A DNA stretch of 49,127 nt. Source: a virus. The stretch lies in the IMG/VR virus record IMGVR_UViG_3300045988_124399, positions 1 to 49,127 of that record; one strand, given 5' to 3'. The first letter of the stretch is position 1, and the number at the start of each line of letters is the position of its first letter. Below, one piece after another: positions 3,165 to 49,127 of the stretch. Below the pieces are notes generated by a model. It was not told the origin of the DNA, made no database searches, and was given only the letters and a program-made list of their open reading frames with translations. Position numbers and translations under genes: made by a program.

Positions 3165-4220
3165 ATGATAAAACTTGATTATTCTTTACAAACTCCAGAA
3201 GAAAGAAATCAATTAGTCGAACAAATTTTGGCTGATAATCCAGATCCGCCTGAAAAGTATTTAGAAATTTTAGCAGACTATTTGGTTCTTTGTATGGAGA
3301 AACAAGAAAAAAAGGAGAAAAAATTATTAACTGATAATCGTATGGCTACAGTTAATAAGCGTGAGACTTCTTTTGAAAGTCTTGTTTCCCAACTCGAAAA
3401 TGGCGAAGATGGAATTTATAATTTAATTACAGATAATAGAAATACAATATTTCAACCACATATTACAATTACAAAAAAAGATTTAGAAGAGATACCAAGT
3501 TTAAATTAGTTAAGAGAAGCCATTAATGTTTGGGAGGCTAAATTAAAAGTAACAGAAGGTAAAGATGCTTTTGTTATTAAAAAGGCTCTTATTGAAATGC
3601 GTAAAGATTAGTATGTTATGAAAAATGCTTATCGTCGTCCAATAATGCCTACAAAATTAACCAGATCAAAGTCTTATATTCCATTAGATGATAAAACATT
3701 TATTTTTGATGATGATGGTTTTCCCATTCCTGATGGAATTAGTTTATTAAGACCTGAAATATGTTCTGCGGTTTTATGTAATTATTCCCGATTAAAGCAA
3801 GATAGTTGGGGTGAATACGATAAAGACTTATGGTATTTAATGGAGGATTTTGATAAGCTTTGTGATAAAGCTTTAGCTAATTATCCTCTTTATGATAAAA
3901 TCGTTGAATATAAAATTGATGGTTTACAAAATATTGACATTCAAGAGAAAATACAAATGGAATTTGGTATTAAACATAGTCTTGAATATATTTCAAGTTT
4001 ATGGCGTAATAAAATTCCAAAATTAATTGCTTCGACTGCGGAAGATGAATATTTAGATAATTATTATTTAAATGTTGAAAAAGGTAAATATAAAAAATGT
4101 AGTCGTTGTGGTAAAATAAAATTAGCTCATAATAAATATTTTAGTAAAAATAAAACAAGTAAAGATGGCTTTTATAGTATTTGTAAAAGTTGTCGAAATT
4201 CTAAGGCCAAAAAATCTTAA
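3165..4220 (+). CDS. Hypothetical protein with C-terminal Cys4 zinc ribbon; first gene of the recoded operon (2 in-frame TAG)
   Basis: ORFs 3165..3509 and 3618..4220 share one frame. The gap is open apart from TAG codons at 3507 and 3609. The stop is TAA. The motif CSRCG..KDGFYSICKSC is present. Confidence 0.6.
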
Positions 4221-4269
4221 TATTGTCCTTTTGTTTATAATAAATAGTTGAAAGGAGAATATTTTATTT

Positions 4270-5457
4270 ATGGCTGAAACATATTATTGCGAAAAATGTA
4301 ATCGTACAATGAATGGCACGGAATTCTATTCATCTAATAATTTAGAAAAATATCCTAATGATGGTAAATTTCCTCTGTGCAAAAAATGTATGACAATGCA
4401 CGTCGATAATTGGAATCCAGATACTTATTTATGGATTTTACAAGAAGCGGATGTTCCTTATGTTCCAGATGAATGGAATAAATTAATGGAAAAATATGGG
4501 CGCGATCCGCAGTCTATGACCGGTATGACAATTCTTGGACGTTATTTGTCAAAAATGAAACTCAAATAGTTTAAAGATTATCGTTGGAAAGATACAGAAT
4601 TTTTATAGTAGATGGCGAATAATAAATTAGAGCAAACTATGAAACGTCAAGGATATGATGCTCAATAGATTGCAACCGCTATTGAAAAAAGTTCTATTGC
4701 TATTCCAGAAGGAGAATTAAAAGAACCGGTTTATGCTCCACCACCTAATGCCCCTACGGAAGATTATTTCGCACAATAGAGTGGTAAAGTGGAACAAGAA
4801 TTAGACTTAACTGATGAAGACCGCACTTATTTAAGACTTAAATGGGGCAAAACTTATAAGCCTGAAGAATGGGTTAAGCTTGAATAGCTGTATGAAGAAA
4901 TGATGGCTTCTTATGATATTCAAGGTGCCGGACATAAAGATACGCTAAAATTAATATGTAAGACATCTTTAAAGGCAAATCAATTGATCGATATTGGTGA
5001 TATTGAAGGTTTCCAAAAGATGAGCAAAGTATACGATAGCTTGATGAAGTCTGGTAAATTTACCGCTGCTCAAAACAAAGCAGAATCAGGTGAATTTGTT
5101 GATTCAATTGGTGAATTAATTGAATTATGTGAAAAAGAAGGATATATTGAAAGATATTATGTTGAATAGCCACATGATAAAGTGGATTTAACTATTCAAG
5201 ATATGCAACGTTATACTCGCACTCTTATCGAAGATGAAACTAATATTAGCACAATGGTAGAAAAGGCTTTACGCGAAAATGCTAAAGAAGATGAAGAGAA
5301 AGCAAAGAACGCGGAAAGCGATATCGTTGATGATGCTGATTTAAGTATTGAAGAACTTGAAAAAACTATTAAAGATAGTGATTACGCGGATTTTGAGGAA
5401 TTTAAAGAATAGGAATCCGCGCAAGATAATGAGTTCTTATAGGGTTTGGATAAATAA
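4270..5457 (+). CDS. Putative small terminase / DNA-packaging protein by position, with N-terminal Cys4 zinc ribbon (9 in-frame TAG including a tandem TAG-TAG)
   Basis: Three track ORFs (4270, 4900, 5182) share one frame with only TAG between them. Two adjacent TAG codons sit at 4603-4608. The TAA stop overlaps the terminase ATG (TAATG). Confidence 0.4.
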
Positions 5458-7196
5458 TGGCATTACAAGATTTACTGTAGTTAAGTGATAACCGTAGAAA
5501 AATAGGTCTATCACCGGAACGAGTAGAAGCGGTAATGCCCACTATCCGCAAATACGTTGCCTTTTGGAGAGAATATCCTGATTTATTTGTAGATTTTATG
5601 GTGCGAGGAAGACGCACTGAAATAAAAGATGGAGAATTTAATTTTTATTTTTATTAGAGAGTATTTCTCCGTTCTGTTATGCGTTATTAGTATGTTTACG
5701 CGGTTTTCCCTCGTGCTTATTCTAAATCATTCTTGTCTGTTATGGCATTAATGATTAGATGTATTTTATATCCTGGTGCGCACTTGTTTGTTACTTCTGG
5801 AGGTAAAGAGCAAGGTGCTAGTATTCTTCATGATAAAGTTCAAGAAATATGTGAACTTATTCCAAGCTTTAATCGAGAAATTGATTGGAATCGAGGAAAA
5901 ACTCTTGAAGGAAAAGATAAAGTTAGATATGTGTTTAAAAATGGTTCAGTTTTGGATAACCTCGCAGCTCGTGAAAGCACTCGTGGTCAGCGTCGTCATG
6001 GTGGACTAATGGAAGAATGTGTCGGTATTGATGATGCTATTCTTCGTGAAGTTATTATTCCTGTTATGGCAATTTCTCGTAGAGCTAAAGATGGCACTAC
6101 CAATGAACAAGAGCCATTAAACAAATCACAAATCTATATTACTACTGCTGGTTATAAGGGCACATTCCCTTATGATAGACTTATTGGTTTCTTAGTTCGT
6201 ATGGTGACTTAGCCTGATCGTTGTATGGTATTGGGTGGAACATGGCGAACTCCTGTTGCGGTAGGATTGCAAAGTAAAACATTTATTACTGACCAAAAGA
6301 ATGAAGGAACTTATAATGAAGCTTCATTCGAACGTGAATATGAATCTAAGTGGTCAGGAACTGTTGAGGATGCTTTTTTTAATGGAGAGCATTTTGATAG
6401 AAATAGAAAATTATTATAGCCTGAATATGAAGCTTCTGGACGCGCGGGCGCACAAGCTTATTATGTGCTTTCTGTAGATGTAGGTCGTAAAGGATGCGAT
6501 TCAGTAGTTTGTGTATTTAAAGTAACACCACAAGCTCAAGGTCCAGCTATTAAATCATTAGTAAATATGTATACTATGTCAGATGACCATTTTGAAGATT
6601 AGGCTATTAAATTAAAGAAATTATTTTATAAATATAAAGCTAAAACTTTAGTTATAGACGGTAATGGTTTAGGTATTGGACTTTTAGATTATATGGTAAA
6701 ATCTCAAAATGATGAAGATGGTGAATTTTTACCTGATTTTGGTGTTGAGAATGATGATGATGGATATTATAAAAAATATCGCACACCAAATACTCAATTT
6801 GATGCTATGTATGTTATTAAAGCAAATGCTCCAATAAATACTGAATGTCATGCTAATGCTCAGACTCAATTACAAGCGGGTAAGGTAAAATTCTTAATAG
6901 ATGAGAGAACAGCTAAAGAAAAATTATTAGCTACTCAAAAAGGTTCAAAAATGACTTCTGAACAAAGGGCAGATTATTTAAAACCATTTACTTTAACCTC
7001 CATATTAAAAGAAGAAATGATGAATTTACGCGAAGAAAACGAAGGTATTAATATTATCTTAAAATAGGCAAATCGCGGAATTCGTAAAGATAAATTTTCG
7101 GCTTTTGAATATGGATTATATTATTTAAAACTTGAAGAAGATAAAAAGAAAAAACGTAAAAAGTTTAATGCGGCTGATTGGTGCTTTTTAAATTAA
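5457..7196 (+). CDS. terL: Terminase large subunit (at least 7 in-frame TAG)
   Basis: The N-terminal region has a Walker-A-like VFPRAYSKSF preceded by YVAFWREYPDLFVDFM. The C-terminus has RNase-H-like nuclease motifs (YVLSVDVGRKG and TLVIDGNGLG) and EYESKWSG. The frame is continuous from 5457 to the TAA at 7194. Confidence 0.85.
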
Positions 7197-7208
7197 GGAG
7201 GGTGGAAA

Positions 7209-7565
7209 ATGCGTGCTTCAAGAGGAGAAATTAAAATTGAAGAAATCTTAGAAGAAGCAGGACTACCTTTTAAAATGGAATATATCTTTCCAGATTTAAA
7301 AAGCCCAAGCGGGCGTCCGCTTCGTTTTGATTTTGTTATATTTGATGATGATGGAAAAATTGATTTCATTATTGAGTATTAGGGAAAATAGCATTATGAA
7401 GCCAGTTCTAAATTTGGCGGAAAACGCGGTTTATACCAGTAGCAATATAATGATAATCAAAAAAGACGTTTTTGCGCTTTACATGATTTTAGATTAATAG
7501 AGATTCCATATACCGACGAAAACCTTATTTCTTATGATTATATAATGAAATTAGCAGGTTATTAA
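7209..7565 (+). CDS. Small nuclease-like protein (homing-endonuclease / PD-(D/E)XK-like) inserted between terminase and portal
   Basis: 118 aa. AGGAGG precedes the start. Motif RFDFVIFDDDGKIDFIIEYQGKQHY has a D...E.QGK pattern with 3 in-frame TAG. Its position is typical of endonuclease insertions. Confidence 0.35.
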
Positions 7566-7578
7566 AGGAGGTGGAACT

Positions 7579-9228
7579 TTGGATACGCAAGATCGTAATG
7601 ATTAGATTCACGCTAAAGGTTTTGATATTTATAATGGTCGTTATGAATATAATTATAATGACACTATGGATTATGCCAATAGAAAAATAAAAGTTGGCAC
7701 AAAAACTTTAGATGATGCTATTTTAAAACTTGGTGATTATAGTAAGATTAGATACCCAGGTCAAACTCGTATTATCACAAAACCTGATGTGCTTCGCGCG
7801 CTCGCAGAAAGGGACTTAAATGCTTTGCGATATATTTCTAATCTTTATTATGATATAAGTGGTGTATATCAACGAGTTTGTAATTATGTTGCTTTTTTAT
7901 ACCGCTATGATTGGTATATTGCAGCCGAAACTTATGATGATAATGTAAAAGAAGAAAAAGTTTTAAAAGATTTTTATAGAATGTTGAATTATTTTGATAA
8001 TAGTTATATTAAAAAGATTTGCGGAGATATTGCTTTACAAGTCGTTAAAAATGGATGCTATTATGGATATATAGTTCCTTCAGAGAAAAATCTAATTTTA
8101 CAAGAATTACCAGTTAGATATTGTAGAACACGTTATAGTGTAAATAATACCCCAGTTGTCGAATTTGATATGCGATTTTTTGATACTTTTAGAGATATGA
8201 ATTACCGTTTAAAAGTATTAAAATTATTCCCAGAAGAATTTGCTAAAGGTTATGTTTTATATAAGCAAGGAAAACTTGCTTTAGAAGACGCGGTTGGATG
8301 CTAGCATACTGGTAGTTGGTATGTTCTTGAGCCAGAAAATTGTATTAAATTTAATATTAATAATAGTGATGTTCCTATTTTTGTAAATTCCATTCCTACT
8401 ATTATGGATTTAGATGCAGCGCAAGATCTTGACCGCAAGAAACAAATGTAGAAGTTGCTTAAAATTTTAGTCCAAAAGCTCCCAATGGATAAAAATGGTG
8501 ATTTGATATTTGATGTTGATGAAGCCAGAGATATCCATAATAATGCCGTTTAGATGTTATAGAGGGCTATTGGAGTAGATGTTTTAACTACATTTACTGA
8601 TGTAGATTCTATTGATATGTCTGATAAAAATACTACTACAACGACAGATGATTTAGCTAAAGTTGAACGTAGTGTTTATAATTCGTTAGGTATTTCATAG
8701 AATTTATTTAATACTGATGGTAATATGGCTTTAGAAAAATCAGTGTTAAATGATGAATCTACAATAAGAAGTTTAATTTTATAGTTTAATATATTCTTTA
8801 ATAGAATTATTGAAAAAAAGAGTAGTAATAAGAAATATAATTTTAGATTTTATTTATTAGAAACTACTTAGAATAATTATCAAACACTTTCTAAAATGTA
8901 TAAAGAACAAGCGCAAATGGGACAATCAAAGCTATTGTCTTAGATTGCTCTTGGACATTCATAGAGTTTTATTCTTAATGCAGCTCATTTTGAAAATGAG
9001 ATTTTACATTTAAGTGAAATTATGATTCCTCCTCTTATGAGTTCTACTATGGGTAGTGAAGATATTTTGGGTTTAAAAGATTCATCATCTAATAATAAAA
9101 CTCAAAATAATTCAGGAAGTTCAGGGTCTGGAACTGCTAAAGCTTCTAATGGCGAGGCAGGACGTCCGGAAAAACCTGATGATTAGAAAAGTGAAAAAAC
9201 TATTCAAAATAAAGAAGCAATGAAATAA
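7579..9228 (+). CDS. Portal protein (about 11 in-frame TAG; TTG start)
   Basis: 549 codons directly downstream of terL. AGGAGGTGG lies 7 nt upstream of the TTG. One frame runs to the TAA at 9226. The call rests on synteny and size. Confidence 0.5.
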
Positions 9229-9237
9229 GGAGGATTT

Positions 9238-10821
9238 ATGAAACATACAAGTATTAAATTAAATACACCTTGTGAGTTTATAAATATAACTCCTGTAAAT
9301 CCTTTAATTTCTAAATGCCAAATTAAGGTTTGTTATGTAGATGATAAACCTAATCGTAACAAAAGCGTAATTACTAAAGATGTAGCGACTGAGATGGCTA
9401 ATAGCCTTCCCGGCAGTCCTATTGTTGGCTTTTTTAATGAGAATGCTGAAGATTTTGAAGAACATAATAGGATAATTGAATTATCTAACGGCGAATTTAG
9501 AATGAGAGATAATACTCGCCCTTATGGTTTTGTTGATCTTGGAGCTAAAGTTTGGTTTTAGAAATTTTTGGATGATGGTGTTGCCGAACGTGAGTATTTA
9601 ATGACTGAAGGTTATTTGTGGACTGGTTAGTATCCTGAATGTAAACGTGTAGTTGATAAAGGGAATAATCATTCTATGGAGCTTGATGAAAAAACATTAA
9701 ATGCTACGTGGGCAAAAGATAGTAATGGAAAGCCTTAGTTTTTTATTATAAATAAGGCAATTATTTCTAAACTTTGTATTTTGGGAGAAGAAAATGAACC
9801 TTGTTTCGAAGGCTCCCAAATCAATGTGAATTTTTCATTCGATGATGGTTTTAAGAACACTTTGTTCTCCATGATGAATGAACTTAAAGAATTTATGAAA
9901 GAAGGAGGACCCAAAGTGTTTACACAATATGCTGTTGAAATTGGCGATAGTTTGTGGAATTCTCTCTGGTCTTATGTTGAGACTAAGTATCCTGGCGAGC
10001 CTAGTAGTTATTGTTCTATTTATCGCATTGAAGGCGTTTATGAAGATGCTGGACAAAAGTTTGCTATTCTTCAAAATAGACAAGACCAAAAATATTATCG
10101 CATGGACTTTTCTCTTACCGATGTAGAAGGCTTTGTTCCTTCTGATGCTTTAACTGAAGTAACTAAGTCTTATACTCCGGCAGCAGAGCCTCAGTTTGCT
10201 CTTGCTGATATTGAAGCTTTTGAGACTGATTATGCTTCAAAGAAAAAGGCTGAAGAAGAGGACAAAAATAATAAATCTAACGACCAAAACCCTGATAATA
10301 AATCAGAGGGCAATGATAATAAAAAGAACCCTGATAATGGGGAACCCTCTAATAAGTCTGATAAAGGCGACAATGGTGAGAATGATGATAAAAAGAAAAA
10401 GAAGAATTATTCTCTTGAGGACGTTGTTGAATATACTGAACTTAAAGCTCAGTATGATGAATTACAGACTAAATTCGCAGCTCTTGAAACTGAAAATAAT
10501 AGCTTGAAAGAACAAATTGCTCCACTTGCTGAATTTAAAAATGCTGCTGAGAAGAAAGATAAAGAAGATATGATTGCTAAATTCTATATGCTTTCTGATG
10601 AAGATAAGGCTGATGTTGTTGAAAATATTGATAAATATTCTCTTGATGATATTGAAGCTAAATTATCTGTTATTTGTGTTCGCAACAAGGTGAGTTTCGA
10701 CCTTGACGAAAATAATAAGCCCAATGGTGCTACTACTTTTAATTTGAACGATAATGGTTCAGAAGATGATGATATGCCCGCTTGGGTGAAGGCGGCTTTT
10801 GCTACCGCCAACAAAAATTAA
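9238..10821 (+). CDS. Prohead scaffolding protein, possibly protease-scaffold fusion or nested arrangement (3 TAG, all in the first ~170 codons)
   Basis: ORFs 9238 and 9781 share a frame joined through TAG. There is a long acidic/Lys low-complexity segment plus a coiled coil (KAQYDELQTKFAALETENNSLKEQIAPL). Confidence 0.5.
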
Positions 10822-10838: not shown

Positions 10839-11756
10839 ATGTTTAAAGACTTTTTGAATAAGAATCTTCCTATTAAGTCTCAGGCAAAGTATGTTGAGTT
10901 TGGTTACGGTCAGGTCGAGCCTAATCACCTTTCCGCACAAAGAAATGCTCAAATCTATGCTCAACTTCCTGCCAATAAAGACATTGAGATTCTTGAAAAC
11001 GGTCAGTTTGTAAAGTATGACTATGCTGCTAATGGTAATGGTATCGGCGAAGTCAACTTCACTGGCGAAGGCGAATGGATGCTCGTTTATAACGAGATTA
11101 AGCTTTATCGTGATCATTATGATGGCAGTAAGCAGTGGGATTGCGAATTTGCTATGATTAAAGATGACTATCAGGCTCGTGTTTATAGCCCTTATGATTG
11201 GGAGCATACCGAGGTTGAATATGGTGGTCGTTTCTGGAACGGCGTTGATGAAAAGGGTCAAACCTATAAGTTAATCAATCAGACTGTTTCCGCAGATCAG
11301 GGCTTAAAGACTGTAACTATTGCTGGTCGTGTTTATGATGTCGATGAAGCCGGCAAGTTTACTTATGATGGTAATGAATATACTCTTGATAGTAATCATC
11401 AGGTTGCTAATGTTCCTGTAAAGTATTACTATGATAAGCTTCTTACTGATGTTCCTGATATGTATGAAATGAATTGGACTAATGATCCATATCATAAGTT
11501 AGGTATCTATCATGAGAAGTTCATGGAATCTGGTACTTCTATGGTTCCTCGTGTATTTAAGACCATGATTGGTGATCTTTATACTACTAATATGATTAAT
11601 GAAGAGACTCTTGCTGTTGGAGATAAGCTTTCTCCTTCTGCTGCTACAAAGGGTATTCTTAGCAAAACTGGCGACGATTCAATGACCTGGCAGGTTGTTA
11701 AGGTTTATACTATGCCTGATGGTCAAAAGGGCGTCAAGGTAATGCGTATTAAGTAA
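10839..11756 (+). CDS. Capsid-associated structural protein (TAG-free, GC3-rich codons)
   Basis: 305-aa uninterrupted ORF with a strong AAGGAGG Shine-Dalgarno. It sits immediately upstream of the capsid gene. It has many CAG/GGT/GCT codons and no TAG. Confidence 0.45.
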   Translation: MFKDFLNKNLPIKSQAKYVEFGYGQVEPNHLSAQRNAQIYAQLPANKDIEILENGQFVKYDYAANGNGIGEVNFTGEGEWMLVYNEIKLYRDHYDGSKQWDCEFAMIKDDYQARVYSPYDWEHTEVEYGGRFWNGVDEKGQTYKLINQTVSADQGLKTVTIAGRVYDVDEAGKFTYDGNEYTLDSNHQVANVPVKYYYDKLLTDVPDMYEMNWTNDPYHKLGIYHEKFMESGTSMVPRVFKTMIGDLYTTNMINEETLAVGDKLSPSAATKGILSKTGDDSMTWQVVKVYTMPDGQKGVKVMRIK

Positions 11757-11773
11757 GAAAGGAGAAAAGGATA

Positions 11774-12880
11774 ATGTTAGATAAAAATAATTTAATTGCT
11801 CTTATGAAGCAAGTTGCTAAGGCTGATCCTTCTGCTCCTGTTGCTTATAGTTATGAGGGAAAAAATCTTAGTTATGAAGCCTTAAATGAAACTCTTCGTA
11901 ATGAAATGAATGAGTTGGCTGGCACTTACGCTCTTTATCGTGAAAATAAGAATCTTATTTTCTCTATGATTGAGCAGACTCTTGATGAGGTTCTTCCTAA
12001 GAAAGTTATTCAGCAATATGATCAGTTTGCTGAGGTTAAGACTTTCGCTCAGGGTGATAAGCCTATCTTCCGTCGCCCTCTTAATAATCGTGCTCGTGCT
12101 AAGCAGTTTGTAACTCGCGTTGGTCTTGCTGGTATTTATGAAGTCTTCAAGCTCGGACCTAAAGAGAATGAAGCCTTTGAGGTACGTACTAGCGCTATCG
12201 GCGGAGCTGCTCAGATTGGCTTCGAAGAGTTCCTTGATGGTCGTGTTGATTTCGGTGAAGTAACCAAGATCATCATGGATGGTATGGATGAACTTATTTA
12301 TAAAGAAGTTGCTGCTGCTCTTAGATCTTCTATCAATCAGCTTCCTCCTGCTAACCGCGTTGCGGCTGCCGGATTTGATGAAGCTGCTATGGATCGTTTG
12401 ATCACTATTGCTTCTGCTTATGGCACTCCTACTATTTATTGTACTTATGAGTTCGCTGTTAAGATGATTCCTCATGAGGCTTGGAGATATACTGAAGCTA
12501 TGAAGAACGAACTTTGGAATAATGGTCGTCTTGCTACTTACAAGGGCACTAAGGTTATTATTCTTGAGCAGGGCTTTGAAGATGAAACCAATACTCGTAA
12601 GGTTATTGATCCTGGTTATGCTTGGGTTATTCCTACGGGCGCTGATGGTAAACCTGTAAAGATTGCTTTCGAAGGTGGCACTATTGTTGACGAGTTCAAT
12701 AATTATGACCGTTCTCGTGAGATTCAGGTTTACAAGAAGGTTGGCGTAGTTTGTATGCTTGCTAATAACATCTGTGCTTATGTTGATACTTCACTTCTCG
12801 GTCAGATGTATACTTGGAATTATGATGGAGTCACCGGTAAGGTTGTCACTTATGATGGCCGTCTTGATGGCAAAATCTAA
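11774..12880 (+). CDS. Major capsid protein (TAG-free)
   Basis: 368 aa at the synteny position after portal and scaffold. A strong terminator follows. Codon usage is that of a highly expressed gene (CGT, GCT, GGT, CAG) and there is zero TAG. Confidence 0.55.
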   Translation: MLDKNNLIALMKQVAKADPSAPVAYSYEGKNLSYEALNETLRNEMNELAGTYALYRENKNLIFSMIEQTLDEVLPKKVIQQYDQFAEVKTFAQGDKPIFRRPLNNRARAKQFVTRVGLAGIYEVFKLGPKENEAFEVRTSAIGGAAQIGFEEFLDGRVDFGEVTKIIMDGMDELIYKEVAAALRSSINQLPPANRVAAAGFDEAAMDRLITIASAYGTPTIYCTYEFAVKMIPHEAWRYTEAMKNELWNNGRLATYKGTKVIILEQGFEDETNTRKVIDPGYAWVIPTGADGKPVKIAFEGGTIVDEFNNYDRSREIQVYKKVGVVCMLANNICAYVDTSLLGQMYTWNYDGVTGKVVTYDGRLDGKI

Positions 12881-12900
12881 TTTAATATAAATTATTCCAT

Positions 12901-12943
12901 GGGGAGAAGGGATTAAACTCCCTCTCCCCATATTTTTGTTTTA
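12901..12943 (+). terminator. Rho-independent terminator after the capsid gene
   Basis: GGGGAGAAGGGA-TTAAAC-TCCCTCTCCCC followed by ATATTTTTGTTTT. Confidence 0.75.
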
Positions 12944-12966
12944 TGAGTAAAAGGAGAAATTGAATA

Positions 12967-13560
12967 ATGATTAATAATGAAGATATTTATAATGTAAAAA
13001 ATAGAAGCACTAGTGTAGTTGTTTATACTATTCCTGATACTAATTTGCGTCGTGAGTTTGCGCCCGGTGAGACTAAGCGTATTCCATTTGGTGAGCTAGA
13101 GAAGTTAACTTATCAGGCAGGCGGCCGCGAATTAATTGCTAATTTTTTACAAATTTTAGAGCCAGAAGTAACTCATACTCTTAATGTTCATACTGAACCT
13201 GAATATAATATGTCAGAGCAACAAGTTGCTGATTTAATTCTTAATGGCTCATTAGATGCTTTCTTAGATGCTCTTGATTTTGCTCCTATTGGAATTATTG
13301 ACTTAATCAAGAATTTATCTGTTAGCCTTCCTATTACTGATATTAATAAGCGTAGAGCTTTGAAGGAAAAAACTGGGTTTGATGTTGATAAAGCTATTGC
13401 TAATGATATCGCTAGTAAAGAAGAAGATACTATTGTAGAGAAAGAACCCGCTGCTAAGCGCCGTGTAGTAAGAGAAGAACCTACTACTCAAGGTCGTCGC
13501 ACAAGCGGTTCTGGATATAAAGTAATTAATAAAACCGAGGAAACTTCCTCCAAGAAATAA
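12967..13560 (+). CDS. Hypothetical head or neck structural protein (TAG-free)
   Basis: 197-aa uninterrupted ORF. AAAGGAGA precedes the start and the stop is TAA. Confidence 0.4.
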   Translation: MINNEDIYNVKNRSTSVVVYTIPDTNLRREFAPGETKRIPFGELEKLTYQAGGRELIANFLQILEPEVTHTLNVHTEPEYNMSEQQVADLILNGSLDAFLDALDFAPIGIIDLIKNLSVSLPITDINKRRALKEKTGFDVDKAIANDIASKEEDTIVEKEPAAKRRVVREEPTTQGRRTSGSGYKVINKTEETSSKK

Positions 13561-13579: not shown

Positions 13580-14152
13580 GTGGGAACATTATTCTCAACT
13601 GTTTATAATCGCTTTCTAAACAAGGTTACTGATGATATGTATCTGGAATTGACTCCTGAAGATACTCTAAGAGATTTATAGAATCTTATAATAGATGCTA
13701 TTCCTGGATTTGAATTTCCGCGAAAAAATCTTTTAGATTATAATTTAGATGTCGCTACTATTAATGAATCTGACGCTATGCCGGATGATTTTATTGTAGG
13801 AACAGTATGGGGGGAACTTCCAGAACCGGGTGAAGAACCTCAAGTTTTAGTTGATAGATCCAGTTTTAATTGTGATCTAACTGAAGAAGAAATTAATATT
13901 TTAGCTATTTTAATGATGTGCGGTTGGACGCAAAGACAAGTCACTTCAATTGAGAATACTCGAATGAAATATAGTGGCTCTGATTTTAAATTTACTTCTT
14001 AGGCAAATCATCTATCAAAGCTATTGAATTTATTAGGTGAATGCCAAAGACAATCTCACCATATGTAGCGTTTATATAAACGCAGACGTTTAAATAATAA
14101 AGGTGAGTATGAATCTAATTGGGATGTATTTAAAAGTCGATATGATTACTAA
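13580..14152 (+). CDS. Head-tail connector / head completion protein (GTG start, 3 TAG)
   Basis: AGGAGGG lies upstream of GTG 13580. The frame is continuous to the TAA at 14150. The call is by position. Confidence 0.4.
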
Positions 14153-15498: not shown

Positions 15499-15513
15499 GG
15501 AGAAAAAGGTGTT

Positions 15514-18016: not shown

Positions 18017-18022
18017 TTTTAT

Positions 18023-18058
18023 GGGAGAGAATAGAAATATTCTCTCCCATTTTTTTTA
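18023..18058 (+). terminator. Rho-independent terminator
   Basis: GGGAGAGAATA-GAAA-TATTCTCTCCC followed by TTTTTTTT. Confidence 0.75.
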
Positions 18059-32580: not shown

Positions 32581-32581
32581 A

Positions 32582-37745: not shown

Positions 37746-37758
37746 GGAGGACCACTAA

Positions 37759-38103: not shown

Positions 38104-38105
38104 TA

Positions 38106-40467: not shown

Positions 40468-41049
40468 TTGCCTAATACATTAAATAAATATGTAAAATTT
40501 GTCAGAGGTTCTAAAACCGCTTTTGAAAATTTAGGGACGAAAAGAGACAATGATACTTTATATTTTATTTATGGGGAAAATGATTCTTCTGGAGAACTTT
40601 ATTTAGGTAGTCGTCTAATTTGCGGTGGAATTAGTTCCGCAGGTAAGTTAAGCGATTTAAGTGATATTGTTCTTAATGAAGTTAAGACAAATCAAGTTTT
40701 AATTTATAATGGAGAATAGAAAAAATGGGTTAATTAGGGTTTAGAAAATAATGAGACTTTAATTAATTCTATTGTTGAAAAATTATCTACAGAAGAAAAT
40801 TTAGCTAAATTAGCTCCTGTTTTTAAGGGCACAGTCCCGGGTTTAGTTCCTGTTTCTCTACATGAAACTAAAGGAAAACATATTCTTACCGACGCTGGCA
40901 CATGGATTGATATGCCAGTAGGAACATTAACTTAGGGAGATATTGAAACAATTAATATAGCTAATAAATATTTAGTAGATAAGAGCCCTGATAATTTGGT
41001 AACTCGTGTTGAAGCAGTTGAACAAACTGTTTCTTGGTCTGATATTTAA
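40468..41049 (+). CDS. Fibre-module protein with conserved N-terminal attachment-like domain (TTG start, 3 TAG)
   Basis: AAAGGAG lies upstream. The N-terminus KFVRGSKTAFENL...DTLYFIYG resembles the N-termini of the next two genes. Confidence 0.4.
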
Positions 41050-41063
41050 AGGAGTGAAAAAGA

Positions 41064-42725
41064 TTGAACGTTAAATTTTTAAAAGGCTCTCAAGCCGAAT
41101 TTGAAAAGGTGGCAGGTAGATATAAACCTGGTGCGTTTTATTTAGTAATTAATGATAATAAATCCGCCAAAGACTATAAAAAGCCAAGTCGTCTTTATTA
41201 TGGCGTAGATGAAAATAATTGTGTTCCTGTAAATCAAGGTATTAATGTAGTTGATACTACCGCAGGTTTACCCCAAAGTTCTACTCAAAACACTGCTGGT
41301 GAATTTTATTATGTAAAAGATAAAAATATTTTATGTATTAATAATGGTAAAGGTTGGATTCAAACTAATACCGATACTGTTTTAGATACTAGTAAAAAAA
41401 ATAGTAATGTATCAGTAAATAGTAATCCTGAAAAACCTAATGGAGTTTCTATAACTAATACTATTGCTGATAGTAGTGGTAATATTATTACTGAGACTTA
41501 TGATATTATAGGTAGCGATTATATCCAAATTGAAGCAGTTCCCGCTGTTGATGATAAAGGTGTAGACACTGTTAAATTGAGTTTAAAAGGAATTAATTAT
41601 CAGTTAGGTTCTTCTTTAAAGGAAAAAACTTTAAATGTTAATTTAAAGAATGCTGATACTGATGTAGGTAATTTTAATATTATCGCTGGTAGTAATGTTA
41701 ATATTGCTGAAACTTCTACAGGAAATTATACTTTAAGCGTAAATAAAGCTGTTGATAGCATTGATATAGTTAATCATGTTGGTGGCACTGGTTTTACTGC
41801 TTCTATTAGTGGTCCGGGTGTTGAAGGAGCTGGTAACGGTACAACCTTATCTGCTGATATCGATCCAGAAATTGCTTTAGAAGGTAAGACTGGTAGCTAC
41901 AAATTTAAAGATGGTGTTTTAACTCTTCCTGTTTATAGTAAGCAAGATATTGATAATCAACTTAGAACCATTAATGCTATGGTATTCCGTGGCGGATTCC
42001 AAGTTAAAGATGGAGCTATTGCCTATGATAATTCTGATATTACTGAAATTACTGAAGGTAATACTTTTATTTACACTGGAGCCGAAGACACACTTTGGAA
42101 TGGTCATTATTTACGTCCTGGTGATCTAATTATTGCTTCTGGTGAAGAAGTTAATGGGGCTATTACTGGTACTATTAATTGGACCTATGTTCCTTCTGCC
42201 GATGACCCTGTTACTGAAGTTGAAGGAGCCAATGATAATAGTACTGCTGGTTTTATCATTAAACTTGGTTCTACTAAAAAACTTTTAGATTATGCTCTTA
42301 ATGGTGAAAGTGGTATTGTTTTAGAAACAGAAGTTTTAACAGATTCAAAAGGTCAACCTACTAATTCTAAAGTCGTTACTATTAAACATAGTAATACTTT
42401 AACTGTAAATGATCCAGTTCCTTTAGAATATGCAGATGAACAAACTATTACTATTAATGAGCCAACTGAAATTGATGCTCAAGGCCATGTAGTAAAATCT
42501 ACTCAAAAGACTTTTACAATAAAAAATACTCATCAAGAGATTGGTAATGCAGATTATACAGTAAATGGTACTGATACTTTAATTCCTAACCTTAAAGTTG
42601 CCGGTGCTGATCTTGAAGGTAAACCGCTTGTTTTCGCCAGTAATAGTCTAAAGGTTAATGTTTCCGCAGCGACTGCGACTGATAATGCTAAAGTTAATTT
42701 TGAGTTAGAGTGGGGAACATTCTAA
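41064..42725 (+). CDS. Fibre / receptor-binding-type protein, 553 aa (TAG-free, TTG start)
   Basis: AAAGGAGTG lies upstream. It shares the N-terminal module KFLKGSQAEFEKV...GAFYLV. It has zero in-frame TAG. Confidence 0.45.
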   Translation: MNVKFLKGSQAEFEKVAGRYKPGAFYLVINDNKSAKDYKKPSRLYYGVDENNCVPVNQGINVVDTTAGLPQSSTQNTAGEFYYVKDKNILCINNGKGWIQTNTDTVLDTSKKNSNVSVNSNPEKPNGVSITNTIADSSGNIITETYDIIGSDYIQIEAVPAVDDKGVDTVKLSLKGINYQLGSSLKEKTLNVNLKNADTDVGNFNIIAGSNVNIAETSTGNYTLSVNKAVDSIDIVNHVGGTGFTASISGPGVEGAGNGTTLSADIDPEIALEGKTGSYKFKDGVLTLPVYSKQDIDNQLRTINAMVFRGGFQVKDGAIAYDNSDITEITEGNTFIYTGAEDTLWNGHYLRPGDLIIASGEEVNGAITGTINWTYVPSADDPVTEVEGANDNSTAGFIIKLGSTKKLLDYALNGESGIVLETEVLTDSKGQPTNSKVVTIKHSNTLTVNDPVPLEYADEQTITINEPTEIDAQGHVVKSTQKTFTIKNTHQEIGNADYTVNGTDTLIPNLKVAGADLEGKPLVFASNSLKVNVSAATATDNAKVNFELEWGTF

Positions 42726-42786
42726 GGGCAATACTATTTAATAATAAATATAATTTTTTCTATTTTATATAGAAGAATGTTTTTAT

Positions 42787-42823
42787 GGGGAAAGATGAAA
42801 TATTCTTTCCCCATATTTTTTTT
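42787..42823 (+). terminator. Rho-independent terminator
   Basis: GGGGAAAGA-TGAAATAT-TCTTTCCCC followed by ATATTTTTTTTT. Confidence 0.75.
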
Positions 42824-42843
42824 AGGATAGAAAGGAGTAAATT

Positions 42844-45800
42844 ATGTCTAAGATACGTTTTCGTCCTGTGCAAGGTCCAGAAGAAAAAATAAAAGAATAT
42901 CCTCAAAGCGATGGATATTTTTATGTGGCAACAGATACAGGTCGAGTTTATTTAGATACGGCAACTGAAAATAAAATGCCAATAGGGTCTAGTGGTGTTC
43001 AGGTAATTTACGGTACAGATAATACTGTGGAAATTGAATATGATGCGGATGAAAACCCAGTGGCTTATTTAATTCTTTTATCAAAATTATCTATAACAAA
43101 TTGTCATATAGATGATTTAATTTTAAATTTAGACGGATGTTTTTATCGAATTTTAGGTTTTGCTTTAAATGAAAACCGCGAAGAATGCGCGAGATGTGAA
43201 AAATTAACTGTCGCCGGGGCGGGCGGTGGCGGAGAAGGAGACTCTGAACAAAAAGTTTTAGGAACTGTTTCTTTAACAAGAATTCCATCTGACAGCCCTG
43301 TTGATATCTTAAATGAAGAAAATGTTAAAGTAAAAGTTTTGGTTAAATGTAGAACTGTTGGTGGCGTTCCGCAATCTTCTTCTGTGCAAGGAATTATAAC
43401 TATAAGTGAAATTAAAAGTGCTACAGAAAAAGAAGTATATTACACTTCTCCTCCTACTACTTATGAACATAATATTTCACAAGAAATTGATTTAACTAAT
43501 ATTTTAAGAAATTCATGTTCTAGTGAGATTAATTTTAGTATTTATTATAATCCTGATGAAGAAAATAATAGATTTTAGAAAAGCTCTGATACTATTAATA
43601 TTAATAAGCATCATCTCTCTTTTAGCTGGAAAGAAAGTAGTTTTAGTAATGATAGTCCAATTGATAATGGACAAATATCTGTCAGTTGGTTAATGTCTGA
43701 AGATATCGCCAGATCTGTTGAAGTTTATTTTGATGATTATTTAGTTTTAGATAGAACTTATAGTGATACTGATTCTTCTTCTGAAGATTCTTTTGTTATT
43801 ACTCCTGATACAAATATATTAGGGGTTGACAAAGTTTCTACTTTAAAAAATTATTTTACTCATGGTGAGCATATAATAAAAGCAAAGTTGTATTTAATGA
43901 ATAATTCTAAAAAAGGCGCGGGAACAGATTTTATTCAAAAGGAAATTGTTATTCAAGAATTAGGTAATAAAATGCCTTTAATTTGGGTACAAGATTTTAA
44001 GACAGAATATTATACTTATGAGACAATAAGAATTCCTTTTAAAGTATTAGACCCAAATAATAATGGAGCTTTTATAACTCTTTATAAAAATGGTGTTCAA
44101 GTAGGAACTAGAGAATTAGATAGTTCGCAAGTTAGAGAATGGCAATATTGGGAAATTACTAATTTAACTGTAGATGATAGTTCTTATTATACTATTAAAG
44201 TTGGTACTGATCCTTATTCTTATTCTCGTAATTTTAATTTTACAATTTTAATTGACCCTTTAAGAGATATGAAGTTAGTAAAAAAAGATAATTTAAAAGT
44301 TAATTTTATAGCTACTGGTCGTTCTAATTCAGAAGGAAAATTAGGTCGTGAAACTTATTTAATTAATAATAATAAATATGTAGAATTTAAAAATTTTAAT
44401 TGGTATAATAATGGGTGGGTTTTTGATGAAAATAATACGACTTGTTTGCGAGTAAGTAATGGTGCAGAAGTATCTATTCCAGTTGGGAAAATGGCCTTTA
44501 AAGATGGATCATCATCTGCTACTATTGAGGTTCAATTTAAAATAAAAAATCCTCAAAATTATGCTAAAGTTATAACTAAATATACTAGATATAAAGTAAG
44601 CAGAGATAATTGGGAAGATGATGATGCTTGGGATAAATTTAAAGCTCAAAATAAATATCTTAATTATGATGAGTTTTTAACTAAAGAATATTTACCGACA
44701 ACCAATTATAGCTATGATGATTTAGAGTATAATAAAATAGAACAAGATTTTAATTTAAAGAATTTAGTCTGTGCATATGGTAAATTAGGAAGCTCTGTTT
44801 CTCCTGGTATTTATTTTAGTCCATAGGATGCTGTATTTACGGCTAATGGCGCTCAAGAGACAGTTTCAGTTGATTTTATTGAAAATGAAATGTTAAATCT
44901 TTCATTTGTTTATACTAAAAAGAAAAGTGATATAGAAGGCGGAAATTCTAAATTATTAGAAATTTTTATGAATGGCGTTTTAACTAGTGTTGTACGTTGT
45001 AGTAGTGATATTTGGAATATTGATTCTGATTTTATTAAATTTATGTCTAACACTTGTGATATTGATATTTATAGTATTAGAGTTTATGATACAGATTTAA
45101 CCATTCCTGAAATAGTCCAAAATTATGCTTTTGATAAAAGAAGTATAAAACAATGGGATCAAAAAGACCTTTATGAGAACAATACGGTATTAAAAGACGA
45201 TGTATTCTCTTATACTAAAATGAAAAAGTATAATGATAATCATCCTACTGATCCTTTAATGCCTTATATTATTTTAAGAACTACTAAAAATAATAAAAAC
45301 AACACAGATAATAGATTACCTTATTCTAAAGAAAAAGGAAGTTAGGAAGGAACTTTAGAATTTGTTAATACGGCTTTAGATGCTGCTTATAATAGTGGCG
45401 AGTTAGAAAAAGTTGCTATAAAAGAAGGATGGAAACCTGTAATTGAAAAAAATAAAGAGACTAGGGTAGAAACAATAAAATATACTGCTGTATAGAATTA
45501 TTATATACATCATTGCCCTAGTTTTATAACTGTTCTTAATGGATGTACTTTCCAAGTTCAAGGCACTTCTTCACAATTTTATCCTCGCCGTAACTATAAA
45601 GCTAAATGCAAAGAATCAATGCTTTTAAATAGAGGTCCATTTGCTGAAGAATATAAAAAAGCAGGAGATTAGTATAATGAAGATATAACTAAACATCCTT
45701 GCTATTTAGAATGGTTTTATATGGATAATAAGACAGTTGGTACTACTAAATTTACTTTAAAGATAGATTTTATGGAATCTTCTGGAGATTATAATAGAGG

Positions 45801-48800
45801 ATTTGCTAATTTAGTTAATGAAATTTATTCTAAACATCCCGTAGAAGATTATAAAGATTCTTTTGATAATTATAATTTATATGGAAATTTAGAAGATTAT
45901 CGTACTTCAGTGAAAGGATTCCCAGTTTTAGCTTTCCATTATATGTCTAATGATGATAATACATATTCTAAAGAAAATAGCAGTAATTGTATTTTTATTG
46001 GTAAATATAATATGCTATTAGACAAAGGATCAGATGAATGCTATGGATTTAAGCCTGATAAAAAGATTTTACAAAATCAAATTATTGGAAGTCCTAAAAT
46101 AAGAGATATAGCAGAATGCTGGGAATTTTAGAACAATTCAAGAACTTTTTGCTCTTTCCGCGACCCTTGGAATCGTTATAAATTATCATTTAGAAATCCT
46201 AATATGGTAATCCCTCCAGATGGAGATAATCCTGAATTAGTTAAAGGCGCTCCAAAAGTCGTTGATTCTTTTGAACCAAGATATAATCCAAATGATGATT
46301 TAATTGCTAAATAGTTATTTAATTTAAAAGACTGGGATGATCCAGATGGAACATAGACTAAGATTGTTGGAGAAGAATTAAAAAATGTAGCTCCTGATAG
46401 GCTTATTAAAAAAGAAATAATTGATGAAATTACTGGTGTAAAATCTATTAAATGGATTATAAAAAATCCAGATGGAGAAGAAATAGAATTTAATGTTGGT
46501 AATAATACAAGTAAACAAGAATTGCTCTTAGCTTTAATGTCTAACTGGGAAGATGCAGTTAGTTGGGTATGGAGTACTTGTTTAGATTGTGATATTGAAT
46601 TTGATGATGGACAAAAACTAAAAATTCCATCTATGGGTACTTATACTAAAGTTGATGAATTAGCTGAAGCTATATATGTCCCTAATGTTTACTACATTGA
46701 AAATGGAGTTAATGAAAATGGAAAAATTATTTATAAATTAGCTTCTGAAGAATATAATTCTGAAATAAGATATTATAAGTAGGTTAGTGAAAATAATAAT
46801 TTAAAATATGTAAGTATAAAGCTTACAAATAATCCAGATAAAGTATATAAAACAAATATTTATTATCTTTTAACTGATAGTAAAAATGAAATTTATATAT
46901 TAAGTTCTGATAAATTTAATTCTTCTTTAGATTATTATTCTTTTGTTAAAAATGAAGATCTTATTAATGAAAGATGGAAATTACCTAAACCAGTAACCTA
47001 TGATTCTATTATTTATACTAAAGATAGTAAAGAATATCGTCAAGCTAAATTTAAAAATGAATTAAGCAATTTCTTTGATATTGAATATTTAGCTTCTTAT
47101 CTTTTAATGACAGAAATTTTTGAATGTTATGATTCTCGTGGTAAAAATGCTATGTTTGCTTCTTGGGGGCCCCAAAAAGGTAATATTCAAAGATCTACCG
47201 GTAAATAGCATTATATTTGGTATCCTATGTTTTATGATATTGATACTCAATTAGGAATAAATAATACAGGTATTCCTTCTTTTGAATATTACATTGATGC
47301 TACTGAAGAAGGAAGTTTTTCAACTAACGATAGTGTTCTTTGGAATAATTTTTATACTTTCTTTAGAAGTAAAATGGTAGATAAGTATAAACAATTAATG
47401 GGAACTCAAAATAATTCTTATAGTCCAAATGATTCAAGAGTAAATAAAATTTTTACTAAAGGAGCAGGAAGCGGGGCTAAAAAAAGTGATATTGTAGATA
47501 AATGGTATCGTACTGATCCATCGGTATTTCTTGATAGCTATGCCGTTCTAGGAGACAGACCAATTGTTGCCTTAAGTTTAGACGAAGAATTTAAGTATAT
47601 TATTCCAACAAACTCTAAAGCCAAAGATATGCCAGTGTTTGGTCGTTTAACTGATGGAGGTTCATATGAGGTTGAAGATGATAAATATTTTTATGCTTTG
47701 CAAGGAGATAGAAATCTTTATCGCGCGCAATTTTTAGCTAATCGTCTTAATTACATTGACTCTTGGTTGACTGTTGGCACTTATGCCAGAAATGGTGGAG
47801 GAAGCTATATTAGAAGTCGTATTTCCGCAAACAATCCTAAGAATACATCAGATAAATGGATTGAAGGTACTAACACTCAAAACATGGAAGGATTAATTAC
47901 AAATTCTCAGTATTGGAAAAATGGTGCTGAATTCGAAGAAAAAAATCATATGTTTGATGGTGAGTATTGGATCAACATGGAACCCGCGCGTAATGCCTAT
48001 GTTACTATTGGTACAGATGGAGAGAATTTTCCTTCAAAAAAATATAATGGTTTAGAACCGGTTAAATATGTAGCTCCTGATATTAAAAAAGGAATTATGA
48101 GTAGCGGTAATTATAAAGAACAATTATATTATATTTATGGAATGGATCAAATGAAATCTCTTGGTGATTTAAGTAAATTATATTTTCAAGAGTTTGCGGC
48201 TGAAGGAAAAATGGAACGTTTAACTGATTTATTATTAGGATATGATGGAAAAGATGAAAGTGGTAATGAATATTTTAATAATGATGTAAATGACTGGTCC
48301 TTCTCAAAAGGCGGAATGCCTTTACTTAAAGAAATGAATCTTTGTAATATTAACTTTAAAAAAGACTAGGGGGCATTAGATTTAACTAAAAGTGAAAAAC
48401 TTGAAAACTTTAGAAATACTAAATCCAATATCCCGAGAGTTAATTTTGCTCCTGGAGTAGCTTTAAATACTTTATATTTAACCAATCGAACAAATTATTT
48501 AAGTTTAATAGAAGCTAATTTATTAACGAAATTAATAACTAACTATATATATCCTGAAAAAAATCCAATTACTGGAAAACTTGAGGTCTCAGATGAAAAT
48601 CGTGGTTTATATATTCAAGGTCTTACTGATGCTGAAGAAGGAAAAGAAAAAACCGAGATAAGAACTTTTGATATTCGAGGCGGTAATTTAGGTTATAATA
48701 GTTATGAATTGTTACGCAAATATATTTCAGCTAGTAAAAATAGTAAATTAGATTTATCTAATTGTATTATTAATTTAAATAATGTTTAGTGGAGTCCATA

Positions 48801-49127
48801 TAGACTTCTGACTGACACTAAAACAACTCTTGATCCAGAAAGAAAATCTTATTATAGAGATAATGGACATTTTTAGTTGGTAGCTATTCCAAAAGATTAG
48901 GTTAATAAAATAACAAAATCTGATATTAAAAATAATTAGATTTATTATTTAGATACAATAAATGGAGACAATAATAATCATAGTATAATAACTGATTATA
49001 ATTTATTAATTGATATTTATAATAATTATAGGGGTCTTAATACTAATAAGCCAGAAATATCTGGTGTTATGTATATAAAAAATAATAATTAGATTGATGA
49101 ATCTATTATCTAGAATGAGTTATAGGA
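42844..49127 (+). CDS. Giant fibre / host-interaction protein, more than 2094 codons, open to the window edge (dozens of TAG)
   Basis: Track ORFs 42844, 43693, 44890, 45721, 46522 and 47227 all sit in frame 1. Hand reading of every gap found only TAG, never TAA/TGA, out to 49127. The N-terminal module RFRPVQGPEEKI...DGYFYVATDTGRVYL is shared with the two upstream genes. Confidence 0.6.

Follow-up and report, generated by a model that had tools for sequence, protein, structure and literature searches.

The DNA analysed here, a 49,127-bp stretch of the IMG/VR virus record IMGVR_UViG_3300045988_124399 (the window; coordinates refer to its + strand unless stated), is best explained as the cluster of virion genes from a tailed gut phage, as yet uncultivated, with a genome of about 190 kb. 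In this cluster, which covers packaging, head, tail and fibre genes, the amber codon TAG has been reassigned to glutamine (genetic code 15). We assign this reading a probability of roughly 0.93. TAG is translated in this lineage and is functionally equivalent to Gln; it does not act as a terminator. By analogy, the structural module, which resembles those of SPbeta and of the gut phage phAss-1, would imply a long non-contractile tail.

The reassignment is visible in the reading frames. The GC content of the window is 31.2%, in line with the value of about 30% that a first-pass annotation of the sequence had estimated by eye. If translation is allowed to stop at TAA and TGA only, 98% of positions 3001–49127 fall into + strand frames that are 100 codons or longer. 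The same measure gives 57% with the standard code, 57% when TGA is read as sense and 64% when TAA is read as sense. The increase from 57% to 98% upon reading through TAG confirms the proposal of that annotation that TAG is a sense codon. The 26 co-directional gene calls that extend from 3165 to the window end comprise about 14,900 codons and contain 208 TAG triplets in frame 0, but no TAA and no TGA. The two off-frames of these genes contain 1,789 TAA, 1,226 TGA and 717 TAG. We also recounted all the joins by which neighbouring fragments had initially been connected, and each turned out to be a single frame free of TAA and TGA. These frames lie at 3162–4220 (2 TAG), 4252–5457 (9 TAG), 5454–7196 (7 TAG), 7549–9228 (12 TAG), 19883–28828 (60 TAG) and from 42841 to the window end (18 TAG). 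The longest of them, 19883–28828, comprises 2,981 codons; the chance that so many codons lack TAA and TGA is about 1e-86, as calculated from base composition alone. In-frame TAG codons are evenly distributed over the length of the genes, with no accumulation towards 3' ends. Gene starts are preceded by good ribosome-binding sites, and the genes are tightly packed. Adjacent TAG codons occur twice, at 18667–18672 and at 4606–4611, the latter pair having first been misplaced at 4603–4608.

The 25 complete genes in the window terminate with TAA (20) or TGA (5), never with TAG. This absence had been noticed before, and within the recoded cluster the argument is partly circular. Independent counts lead to the same result. 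Among the leftward upstream genes of three recoded sister loci, none of 47 ends in TAG, and these genes contain only two in-frame TAG in about 4,500 codons. By comparison, 23 of 204 genes in standard-code sisters end in TAG. Taken together, these numbers indicate that the lineage has abandoned TAG as a terminator.

We then turned to the question as to which amino acid TAG encodes. The most informative comparison is with eight standard-code sister phages, whose large terminase subunits (TerL) are 67–72% identical and contain no TAG, and in which the standard code places 97–99% of the region in long frames. Gln accounts for 294 of the 473 residues that these sisters align to TAG codons of the window (62%); at CAA and CAG positions of the window the share of Gln is 57%. 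Gln is also the majority residue in 40 of 62 TAG columns, and the next-best amino acid falls more than 700 log-likelihood units below it. Opposite TAG codons these alignments contain only three gaps and no stops. Three distant standard-code phages carry Gln at 39 of 189 non-gap residues aligned to TAG, with log-likelihood deficits relative to Gln of 38 for Lys, 45 for Ser, 131 for Tyr, 144 for Leu and 158 for Trp. In recoded sisters (69–99% protein identity), TAG codons of the window pair with TAG or with CAA/CAG, but never with TAT, TAC, TAA or TGA. In sister locus L006, for example, 59 such positions include 30 CAA, 5 CAG and 6 TAG. Finally, the Gln content of TAG-containing genes is 4.4% when TAG is counted and 2.8% otherwise, while TAG-free genes contain 3.2% Gln. 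These four tests agree with the assignment of TAG to Gln that had been proposed from the sequence. Inspection of the homologue alignments, which had been suggested as a check, revealed Gln at TAG sites and no clustering of gaps, termini or stops. The annotation had also noted that conserved terminase motifs reassemble only if TAG is read through. Alignments with terminases of Enterococcus, Geobacillus and Alicyclobacillus phages cross all seven TAG codons of TerL end to end, and a single alignment covers residues 10–579 of the TerL of Enterococcus phage VRE9_4.

One argument for Gln fared less well. The first-pass annotation had pointed out that TAG-rich genes use very little CAG. The counts are as described: CAG represents 9.5% of CAA plus CAG in genes that contain TAG and 45% in those that do not. 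In the latter, however, AAG and GAG increase in parallel with CAG, which argues that the CAG enrichment is mostly a general codon bias, and the gene at 41064–42725 is TAG-free yet poor in CAG.

A reassigned TAG calls attention to the tRNA that may decode it. The window contains no tRNA and no Rfam family, consistent with the initial statement that no suppressor tRNA is present. Loci from 44 relatives, each spanning TerL ±10 kb, did not contain a suppressor tRNA either; their sole tRNA is a tRNA-Asn in L061. We then scanned IMG/VR with the anticodon-arm sequence that is common to two suppressor tRNAs of phAss-1, followed by the exact sequence of the recovered tRNA. An identical 90-nt tRNA with a CUA anticodon, tRNA(CUA), occurs in five IMG/VR contigs (identifiers ending in _126669, _110853, _118370, _126226 and _119030), all of which also appear on the list of contigs with 98%-identical TerL. 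The gene, which was called by ARAGORN, lies at 7965–8054 (+) in L152, 9078–9167 (−) in L161, 3369–3458 (−) in L192, 1688–1777 (+) in L242 and 2988–3077 (−) in L243. It is flanked by tRNA-Val and tRNA-Tyr within an array of at least 18 tRNAs, and one of the contigs that carry it matches positions 41608–49127 of the window at 94.8%. The lineage encodes a tRNA with a CUA anticodon, and the expectation that the decoding machinery would lie elsewhere in the element is thus borne out as far as this tRNA is concerned.

The identity of this tRNA can be compared with what is known from E. coli, where Gln identity depends on the pairs 1-72 and 3-70, the discriminator base, the 10-25 pair, U35 and G36 (PMC9976931). 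The E. coli set consists of a weak 1-72 pair, G2-C71, G3-C70, G73, G10 and U35, and an amber tRNA-Ser can be converted to a Gln acceptor by changing two acceptor-stem pairs (PMC9976931). Amidotransferases and GluRS2, for their part, depend on U1-A72 (PMC9976931). The tRNA(CUA) of L152 contains an unpaired U1·U72, G2-C71, G73, G10-C25 and U35, but C3-G70 and A36. Across 30 distinct tRNA(CUA) genes with a long extra arm, the profile at positions 1-72, 2-71 and N73 resembles that of phage tRNA-Gln from the same loci and not those of tRNAs for Ser, Tyr or Leu. We did not follow the ARAGORN call of "tRNA-Pyl" for tRNA(CUA), which is based only on the anticodon. An origin of tRNA(CUA) from the neighbouring tRNA-Tyr (the supF route) was also rejected, because the acceptor stem differs, all tRNA-Tyr genes carry A73 and Tyr never occurs opposite TAG. 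Next to tRNA(CUA) and tRNA-Tyr in L161, ARAGORN reports an 80-nt "tRNA-SeC" with a UCA anticodon and a poor fold (7726–7805, −). The window uses TGA as an ordinary stop, and the call is probably spurious or marks a degenerate tRNA.

Based on these features we propose that the host charges tRNA(CUA) with Gln, because its acceptor stem is like that of tRNA-Gln (weak or unpaired 1-72, G2-C71, G73, G10 and U35). Charging may proceed by glutaminyl-tRNA synthetase (GlnRS), or by a non-discriminating glutamyl-tRNA synthetase (GluRS) followed by the amidotransferase GatCAB. Once expressed, tRNA(CUA) would outcompete or replace release factor 1 (RF1) at UAG. The tape measure protein sets a lower limit on the efficiency of this process. 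With 60 TAG codons, per-codon decoding of 99% would yield 55% full-length chains, and 90% would yield 0.2%. Decoding must therefore be about 99% efficient or better at each codon, and this high requirement implies that RF1 is probably neutralised in some way. In the model of Borges et al. (2021/22), early genes follow the host code and late genes are expressed after a switch. If this timing applied here, TAG-rich late proteins would appear only after tRNA(CUA) has been installed. The genes for the most abundant virion proteins, the probable capsid protein and the tube protein, are kept TAG-free, presumably as even small termination losses or slow decoding would be costly for proteins needed in hundreds of copies.

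The use of TAG is indeed strongly uneven. TAG makes up 1.6% of codons in the rightward cluster versus about 0.04% in the leftward genes, a difference of about 36-fold. Six genes of the cluster are free of TAG (10839–11756, 11774–12880, 12967–13560, 16845–17843, 19247–19780 and 41064–42725). Four of the six, namely 10839–11756, 11774–12880, 16845–17843 and 19247–19780, prefer G-ending codons (AAG, GAG and CAG). We compared TAG avoidance among 24 recoded relatives with TerL identities of 64–99%. The gene for the YonB-like protein, the probable major capsid protein, contains no TAG in 23 of these 24 relatives. Its two neighbours average 0.2 and 0.4 TAG, and the flanking genes average 2.4–7.9. The avoidance of TAG in the YonB-like gene is conserved. 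Such a pattern would be expected if TAG were decoded slowly or leakily and were selected against in virion proteins made in the largest amounts. TAG is not confined to virion genes. Protein genes within the tRNA array also contain in-frame TAG, with seven in the gene at 9235–10728 (+) of L152 and four in the gene at 5871–7901 (−) of L161, which shows that recoding reaches beyond the virion cluster.

Transcription signals were examined in the same context. A perfect consensus match to a sigma-70-type promoter, TTGACA-17-TATAAT, lies at 3112–3140 (+), 25 nt 5' of the first rightward gene, and a divergent 11/12 sigma-70 match at 3029–3001 (−) faces the leftward genes. A candidate host-type promoter on a TAG-containing putative regulator suggests a translational gate that may precede late transcription. 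Strong terminator-like hairpins with 13 pairs and a T-run follow the tube gene (18021–18050, +) and precede the tape measure gene (19826–19857, +). The cluster probably comprises several transcription units or is attenuated, as these candidate signals indicate. The initial description of a recoded "entire operon" is accurate in that the cluster is one-directional, but it needs correction in view of the internal hairpins, the six TAG-free genes and the extension of recoding beyond the cluster.

Several observations weigh against the proposed reading. The fit to the timing model is loose, because genes in the tRNA array carry TAG and the first TAG-containing gene stands behind a perfect host-type promoter. 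Neither release factor 2 (RF2), an antagonist of RF1 nor GlnRS turned up in the window and the loci read, which amount to about 85 kb out of some 190 kb, although no search was aimed at them. The tRNA(CUA) itself is located outside the window and is linked to it through sister contigs that are 95–98% identical in the compared parts. The case for its charging with Gln is built on sequence features. It also contains a long extra arm, which in bacteria is a mark of tRNAs for Ser, Leu or Tyr, and its 3-70 pair is C-G, as opposed to G-C in E. coli tRNA-Gln. Furthermore, the GluRS of a Bacillota host without GlnRS may require U34, which is absent from the CUA anticodon (PMC9976931).

These difficulties raise the question whether TAG could be a sense codon for another residue, such as Ser, Tyr, Leu, Lys, Glu, Trp or pyrrolysine. 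The long variable arm and G73 of the 90-nt tRNA(CUA) are indeed found in bacterial tRNA-Ser, and codons for Tyr, Ser, Leu, Lys, Glu and Trp are all one mutation away from TAG. On the other hand, Ser occurs 11 times and Tyr not once among the 473 residues of the standard-code sisters that include 294 Gln, and the distant homologues disfavour Ser, Tyr, Leu and Trp by the deficits given above (45, 131, 144 and 158 units). Among close relatives no exchange of TAG with TAT or TAC is seen, and the acceptor stem of tRNA(CUA) is like that of tRNA-Gln and unlike those of tRNAs for Ser, Tyr and Leu from these loci. A long arm is compatible with recognition by GlnRS, given that an amber tRNA-Ser is convertible by two acceptor-stem pairs (PMC9976931). 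We consider a residue other than Gln very unlikely. It is also highly improbable that the phage simply mirrors a host that reads TAG as sense, in the way that code-4 and code-25 phages follow Mycoplasma and Absconditabacteria. In favour of this idea, near-identical contigs have been binned into metagenome-assembled genomes (MAGs) labelled "uncultured Mollicutes" and "Tenericutes", and no TAG stop occurs in any part of the lineage that was examined. However, the MAG labels spread over at least eight unrelated taxa, including Acutalibacteraceae, Bacteroidales, Treponema, Mollicutes, Agathobacter, Lachnospiraceae, Erysipelotrichaceae and Gastranaerophilales, which argues for mis-binned phage contigs. 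We know of no bacterial lineage that reads TAG as Gln. The strongly uneven use of TAG among gene classes, the presence of a phage-borne tRNA(CUA), and the existence of sisters at about 70% TerL identity that follow the standard code and have genes terminating in TAG also speak against a recoded host. We dropped the assignment of a host from the titles of GTDB MAGs as unreliable, since these labels cross phyla.

Next to no weight can be given to the idea that the fragments are real, whether as decayed pseudogenes, parts of a defective element or artefacts of assembly or sequencing. It is true that long frames cover only 57% of the region in the standard code, and that the GenBank record of phAss-1 was initially annotated as fragments. 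Decay or error, however, would have to introduce one stop triplet only (208 TAG versus no TAA and no TGA), at positions that are conserved among independent assemblies from many samples and that are crossed by full-length homologue alignments. A further possibility refines the assignment of TAG to Gln rather than replacing it, and we give it an even chance: TAG may stop translation early in infection through host RF1 and be read as Gln once tRNA(CUA) accumulates, so that the codon would serve as a timer for virion production and lysis. This model, which was proposed by Borges et al., agrees with the 36-fold higher TAG density in the virion cluster relative to the leftward small genes. It would also give a role to the sigma-like first gene, which contains two TAG codons behind a perfect host-type promoter. 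Its transcript could be made early, and completion of the protein would be possible only after suppression. Against a timer, TAG also occurs in genes among the tRNA array, and it is avoided by abundant late proteins, a pattern that an efficiency cost would explain equally well.

Closer inspection of the extra arm of tRNA(CUA) revealed an unexpected motif. The long-arm type accounts for 30 of the 114 distinct tRNA(CUA) genes in the fetched loci; the other 84 have no extra arm. The arm consists of a short stem and a 7-nt loop of the form Y-U-(C/U)-U-G-A-N, which holds CUG or UUG. In an alignment of 25 members, all three stem pairs show compensatory changes on both sides and 89% of the cells are paired; columns 50-60, for instance, contain CG 12 times, GC 8 times and UA twice. 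The most frequent loop is CUCUGAA (13 members), followed by CUUUGAA (3, this lineage included) and UUCUGAG (3). A U and a G of the loop are invariant. The same heptamers form the anticodon loops of genuine tRNA-Gln in those loci, and in a set of 600 tRNAs only tRNA-Gln has the motif YUYUGA in its anticodon loop. In tRNAs for Ser, Leu and Tyr from the same loci, the extra arm is closed by a GNRA-type loop and lacks this motif. The extra-arm family also has a member in phAss-1, a 91-nt tRNA that is one of its three suppressors.

From this pattern we tentatively raise the idea, which we regard as possible but not probable, that amber reassignment in this lineage, in phAss-1 and in many gut phages may rely on a new kind of suppressor tRNA with a loop that mimics the Gln anticodon. 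The second loop might hold the enzymes of Gln charging, or a factor for modification or protection, on a tRNA that lacks the identity base G36. Such an anticodon mimic would account for the near-complete decoding of UAG as Gln. There are precedents in anticodon-like mRNA hairpins that bind aminoacyl-tRNA synthetases, and in engineered tRNAs with aptamers in the variable arm that are still active in translation. The canonical geometry of GlnRS makes simple decoy binding by the loop doubtful, and the arm could instead be a conserved leftover of an anticodon-arm duplication. A weakness of the mimic reading is that 84 of 114 tRNA(CUA) genes do without the arm. The literature that we searched, with incomplete coverage, contained no description of this loop.

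The genes of the window can be assigned as follows. Pfam hits were taken from precomputed matches on the orthologues in sister locus L001, whose TerL is 99% identical and which yielded the SPbeta families YonG, YonD, YonB, YomW, YomV and YomU_Tube. A local Pfam search with 19 window proteins gave no hits, using a copy without the recent SPbeta families. The first 3 kb (1–3054, −) contain leftward small genes with no assigned function that likely represent an early or accessory region; their GC content is 38–44%, and the standard code reads them, with one in-frame TAG in the leftward open reading frame 2575–3054 (−). The first 2 kb of the window have a GC content of 44%, far above the remainder. 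At the same end, comparison of positions 1–119 with 3449–3567 and 4570 onward of L001, a contig 97.5% identical to the window, revealed an indel of about 1 kb with a repeated segment of about 120 bp at its borders.

The rightward genes begin with a 351-aa protein containing two TAG (3165–4220). It matches the PHROG "sigma factor" family phrog_5767 (E = 3.5e-54) and has a zinc-ribbon/HNH-like C-terminal tail; the sigma-factor label is weak, as a local Pfam match is lacking. It is followed by a YonG-like protein (4270–5457, 395 aa, nine TAG including the pair at 4606–4611; PF27269 YonG_N on the L001 orthologue) and by TerL (5457–7196, 579 aa, seven TAG), which was assigned from PHROG and TerL homologues. 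An HNH homing endonuclease (7209–7565, 118 aa, three TAG; PHROG) is inserted between the terminase and portal genes. The portal protein (phrog_2739, E = 4e-81) has 520 aa and ten TAG when started at ATG 7666 (7666–9228). Its start is ambiguous, as a non-ATG codon (GTG or TTG) at 7579 would give a longer protein. Next come a YonD-like head protein (9238–10821, 527 aa, three TAG; PF27290 YonD_N and PHROG) and a TAG-free capsid block at 10839–13560 with a GC content of 35–41%. This block encodes proteins of 305 aa (10839–11756), 368 aa (11774–12880) and 197 aa (12967–13560). The 368-aa protein is YonB-like (PF27364 YonB on the orthologue), and its role as major capsid protein is probable, based on position and family name. 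A PDB sequence search with the probable capsid, tube and 305-aa proteins gave no match, and an AlphaFold model of the YonB-like protein was discarded because of a predicted local distance difference test score (pLDDT) of 42, obtained from a shallow alignment of sequences with at least 87% identity.

Five genes for head completion and tail joining (13637–16820; 171, 113, 354, 193 and 241 aa; YomW- and YomV-like) contain 28 TAG in total. The YomU-like tail tube protein (16845–17843, 332 aa) is TAG-free and matches phrog_2729 (virion structural protein) and PF27173 YomU_Tube. The gene for a 368-aa protein at 18082–19188 is the densest in TAG: its 15 TAG, among them the pair at 18667–18672, make up 68% of its Gln-type codons. 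The TAG-free gene 5' of the tape measure gene (19247–19780, 177 aa) possibly encodes a tail assembly chaperone, judging by position only. The tape measure protein (19910–28828, 2,972 aa, 60 TAG) can be aligned to the VRE9_4 protein that is annotated as such. Distal tail or baseplate genes at 28989–40379 encode proteins of 1,129, 959, 768, 114 and 757 aa with 24, 10, 8, 1 and 8 TAG, respectively; they match tail proteins of VRE9_4 in part. At 40468–42725, two fibre-like genes that start with codons other than ATG code for 193 aa (three TAG) and 553 aa (TAG-free). The last gene, for a very large tail or fibre protein of more than 2,094 aa with 18 TAG, starts at 42844 and runs off the window at 49127. 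In sister contig L097 this frame extends to position 6117, about 490 codons beyond the equivalent of the window end, and is followed at its 3' side by further TAG-containing genes.

The window was also compared with known phages. The TerL is 46–47% identical to that of VRE9_4, 47% to those of H1 and EF1, 46% to that of Geobacillus virus E3, 44.7% to that of phAss-1 and 44% to that of Alicyclobacillus phage KKP_3916. A megablast search with 20 kb against GenBank phages gave no match. The standard-code phages VRE9_4, H1, EF1, E3 and KKP_3916 and the SPbeta-type phages contain the same structural module at 20–49% protein identity without in-frame TAG, and the gene order of the window follows that of VRE9_4 gene by gene from the terminase through the tape measure and tail proteins. 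VRE9_4 also contains an HNH gene after TerL, the product of which is 49% identical to that of 7209–7565. In EF1 and EF5 an HNH gene breaks the TerL match into three pieces.

Sister contigs of the lineage measure 181–197 kb. Relatives at 64–98% TerL identity range from standard-code phages with genes that end in TAG, through lightly recoded ones with 1–3 TAG in TerL, to heavily recoded ones in which TerL has up to 14; loci L063, L065, L068, L075, L081, L090, L094 and L227 form part of this graded series. In public protein collections, TerL and YonB-like proteins of the lineage from hundreds of contigs are already present as full-length read-through products. Contig L225 (CAMELE010000001.1, 163,874 bp), with a 98%-identical TerL, is part of the GTDB species-representative MAG "uncultured Mollicutes bacterium", and other relatives sit in MAGs labelled Treponema, Bacteroidales and Acutalibacteraceae; they look mis-binned. 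The 402,311-bp record IMGVR_UViG_3300032167_000002 (L034 and L047) contains two TerL genes about 200 kb apart, whose products share 87% and 76% identity with P0006, the TerL used as query, which in turn is 99% identical to the TerL of the window. Two related phage genomes have probably been joined into a chimera in this record.

Virions of crAss-like phages are podovirus-like (Crassvirales), and their hosts are Bacteroidota. Their structural module has no homology to that of the window. What they share with it is the same reassignment (Yutin et al. 2021) and the idea of late-gene recoding, and they provide the sole direct peptide evidence that TAG means Gln in phages, through the metaproteomic validation by Peters et al. 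(2022). Gut phages that read TAG as Gln have been described since 2014 and were surveyed in 2021–22. Borges et al. list the clades Lak, crAss-like, Jade, Sapphire, Agate, Garnet, Amethyst and Topaz, and report a phage tRNA(CUA) in about 40% of code-15 genomes. Like those phages, the present lineage combines low GC, TAG in structural genes, alignment of TAG with Gln, a tRNA(CUA) and near standard-code relatives. Its size of about 190 kb falls within the range that Borges et al. give for large Firmicutes-associated clades, a likeness drawn from their description. In the passages of that work that we consulted we found no mention of TAG-free capsid and tube genes or of the extra-arm tRNA seen here.

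The closest code-15 comparison is phAss-1 (Babkin et al. 2023, OQ749652) from the human gut, which encodes three tRNA-Sup-CTA and is classified by NCBI in the "Caudoviricetes code 15 clade". Its proposed genus Phassvirus (phAss-1, ctckW2 and ct6IQ4) is delimited by nucleotide identity of about 80% or more and a common genome organisation of 133–138 kb. The lineage described here shares with phAss-1 the gut origin, a siphovirus-type module, a tape measure protein of about 3,000 aa, TAG-to-Gln reassignment and suppressor tRNAs. It differs in TerL (44.7% identity), in the absence of a nucleotide match and in genome size (about 190 versus 136 kb). By these sequence comparisons it lies outside Phassvirus and would be separate at the genus level at least. 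The lineage is an additional code-15 phage, and recoding itself is already well documented. Laboratory suppressors offer a further comparison. E. coli supE, a tRNA-Gln with a CUA anticodon, keeps U35, a main contact to GlnRS, as does the tRNA(CUA) found here, and in the amber tRNA-Ser variant positions 1-72 and 3-70 set Gln identity even on a long-arm body (PMC9976931). These suppressors have partial efficiency, in contrast to a natural system with 60 TAG in one gene and an extra arm whose loop resembles a Gln anticodon.

In practical terms, the window needs translation table 15, as half its genes otherwise look broken, and near-identical contigs in GTDB representative MAGs distort both gene content and taxonomy. 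With thousands of TerL relatives and single variants that occur on up to 300 contigs, a large and very common gut lineage joins the list of code-15 phages. Recoded and standard-code sisters within 70% TerL identity provide a natural series in which the gene-by-gene spread of the reassignment can be followed, and the genes that resist reassignment are those of the probable capsid and tail tube. Should the extra arm of tRNA(CUA) indeed mimic the Gln anticodon, it would represent a new natural means of preserving tRNA identity after an anticodon change, and a design idea for engineered suppressor tRNAs.

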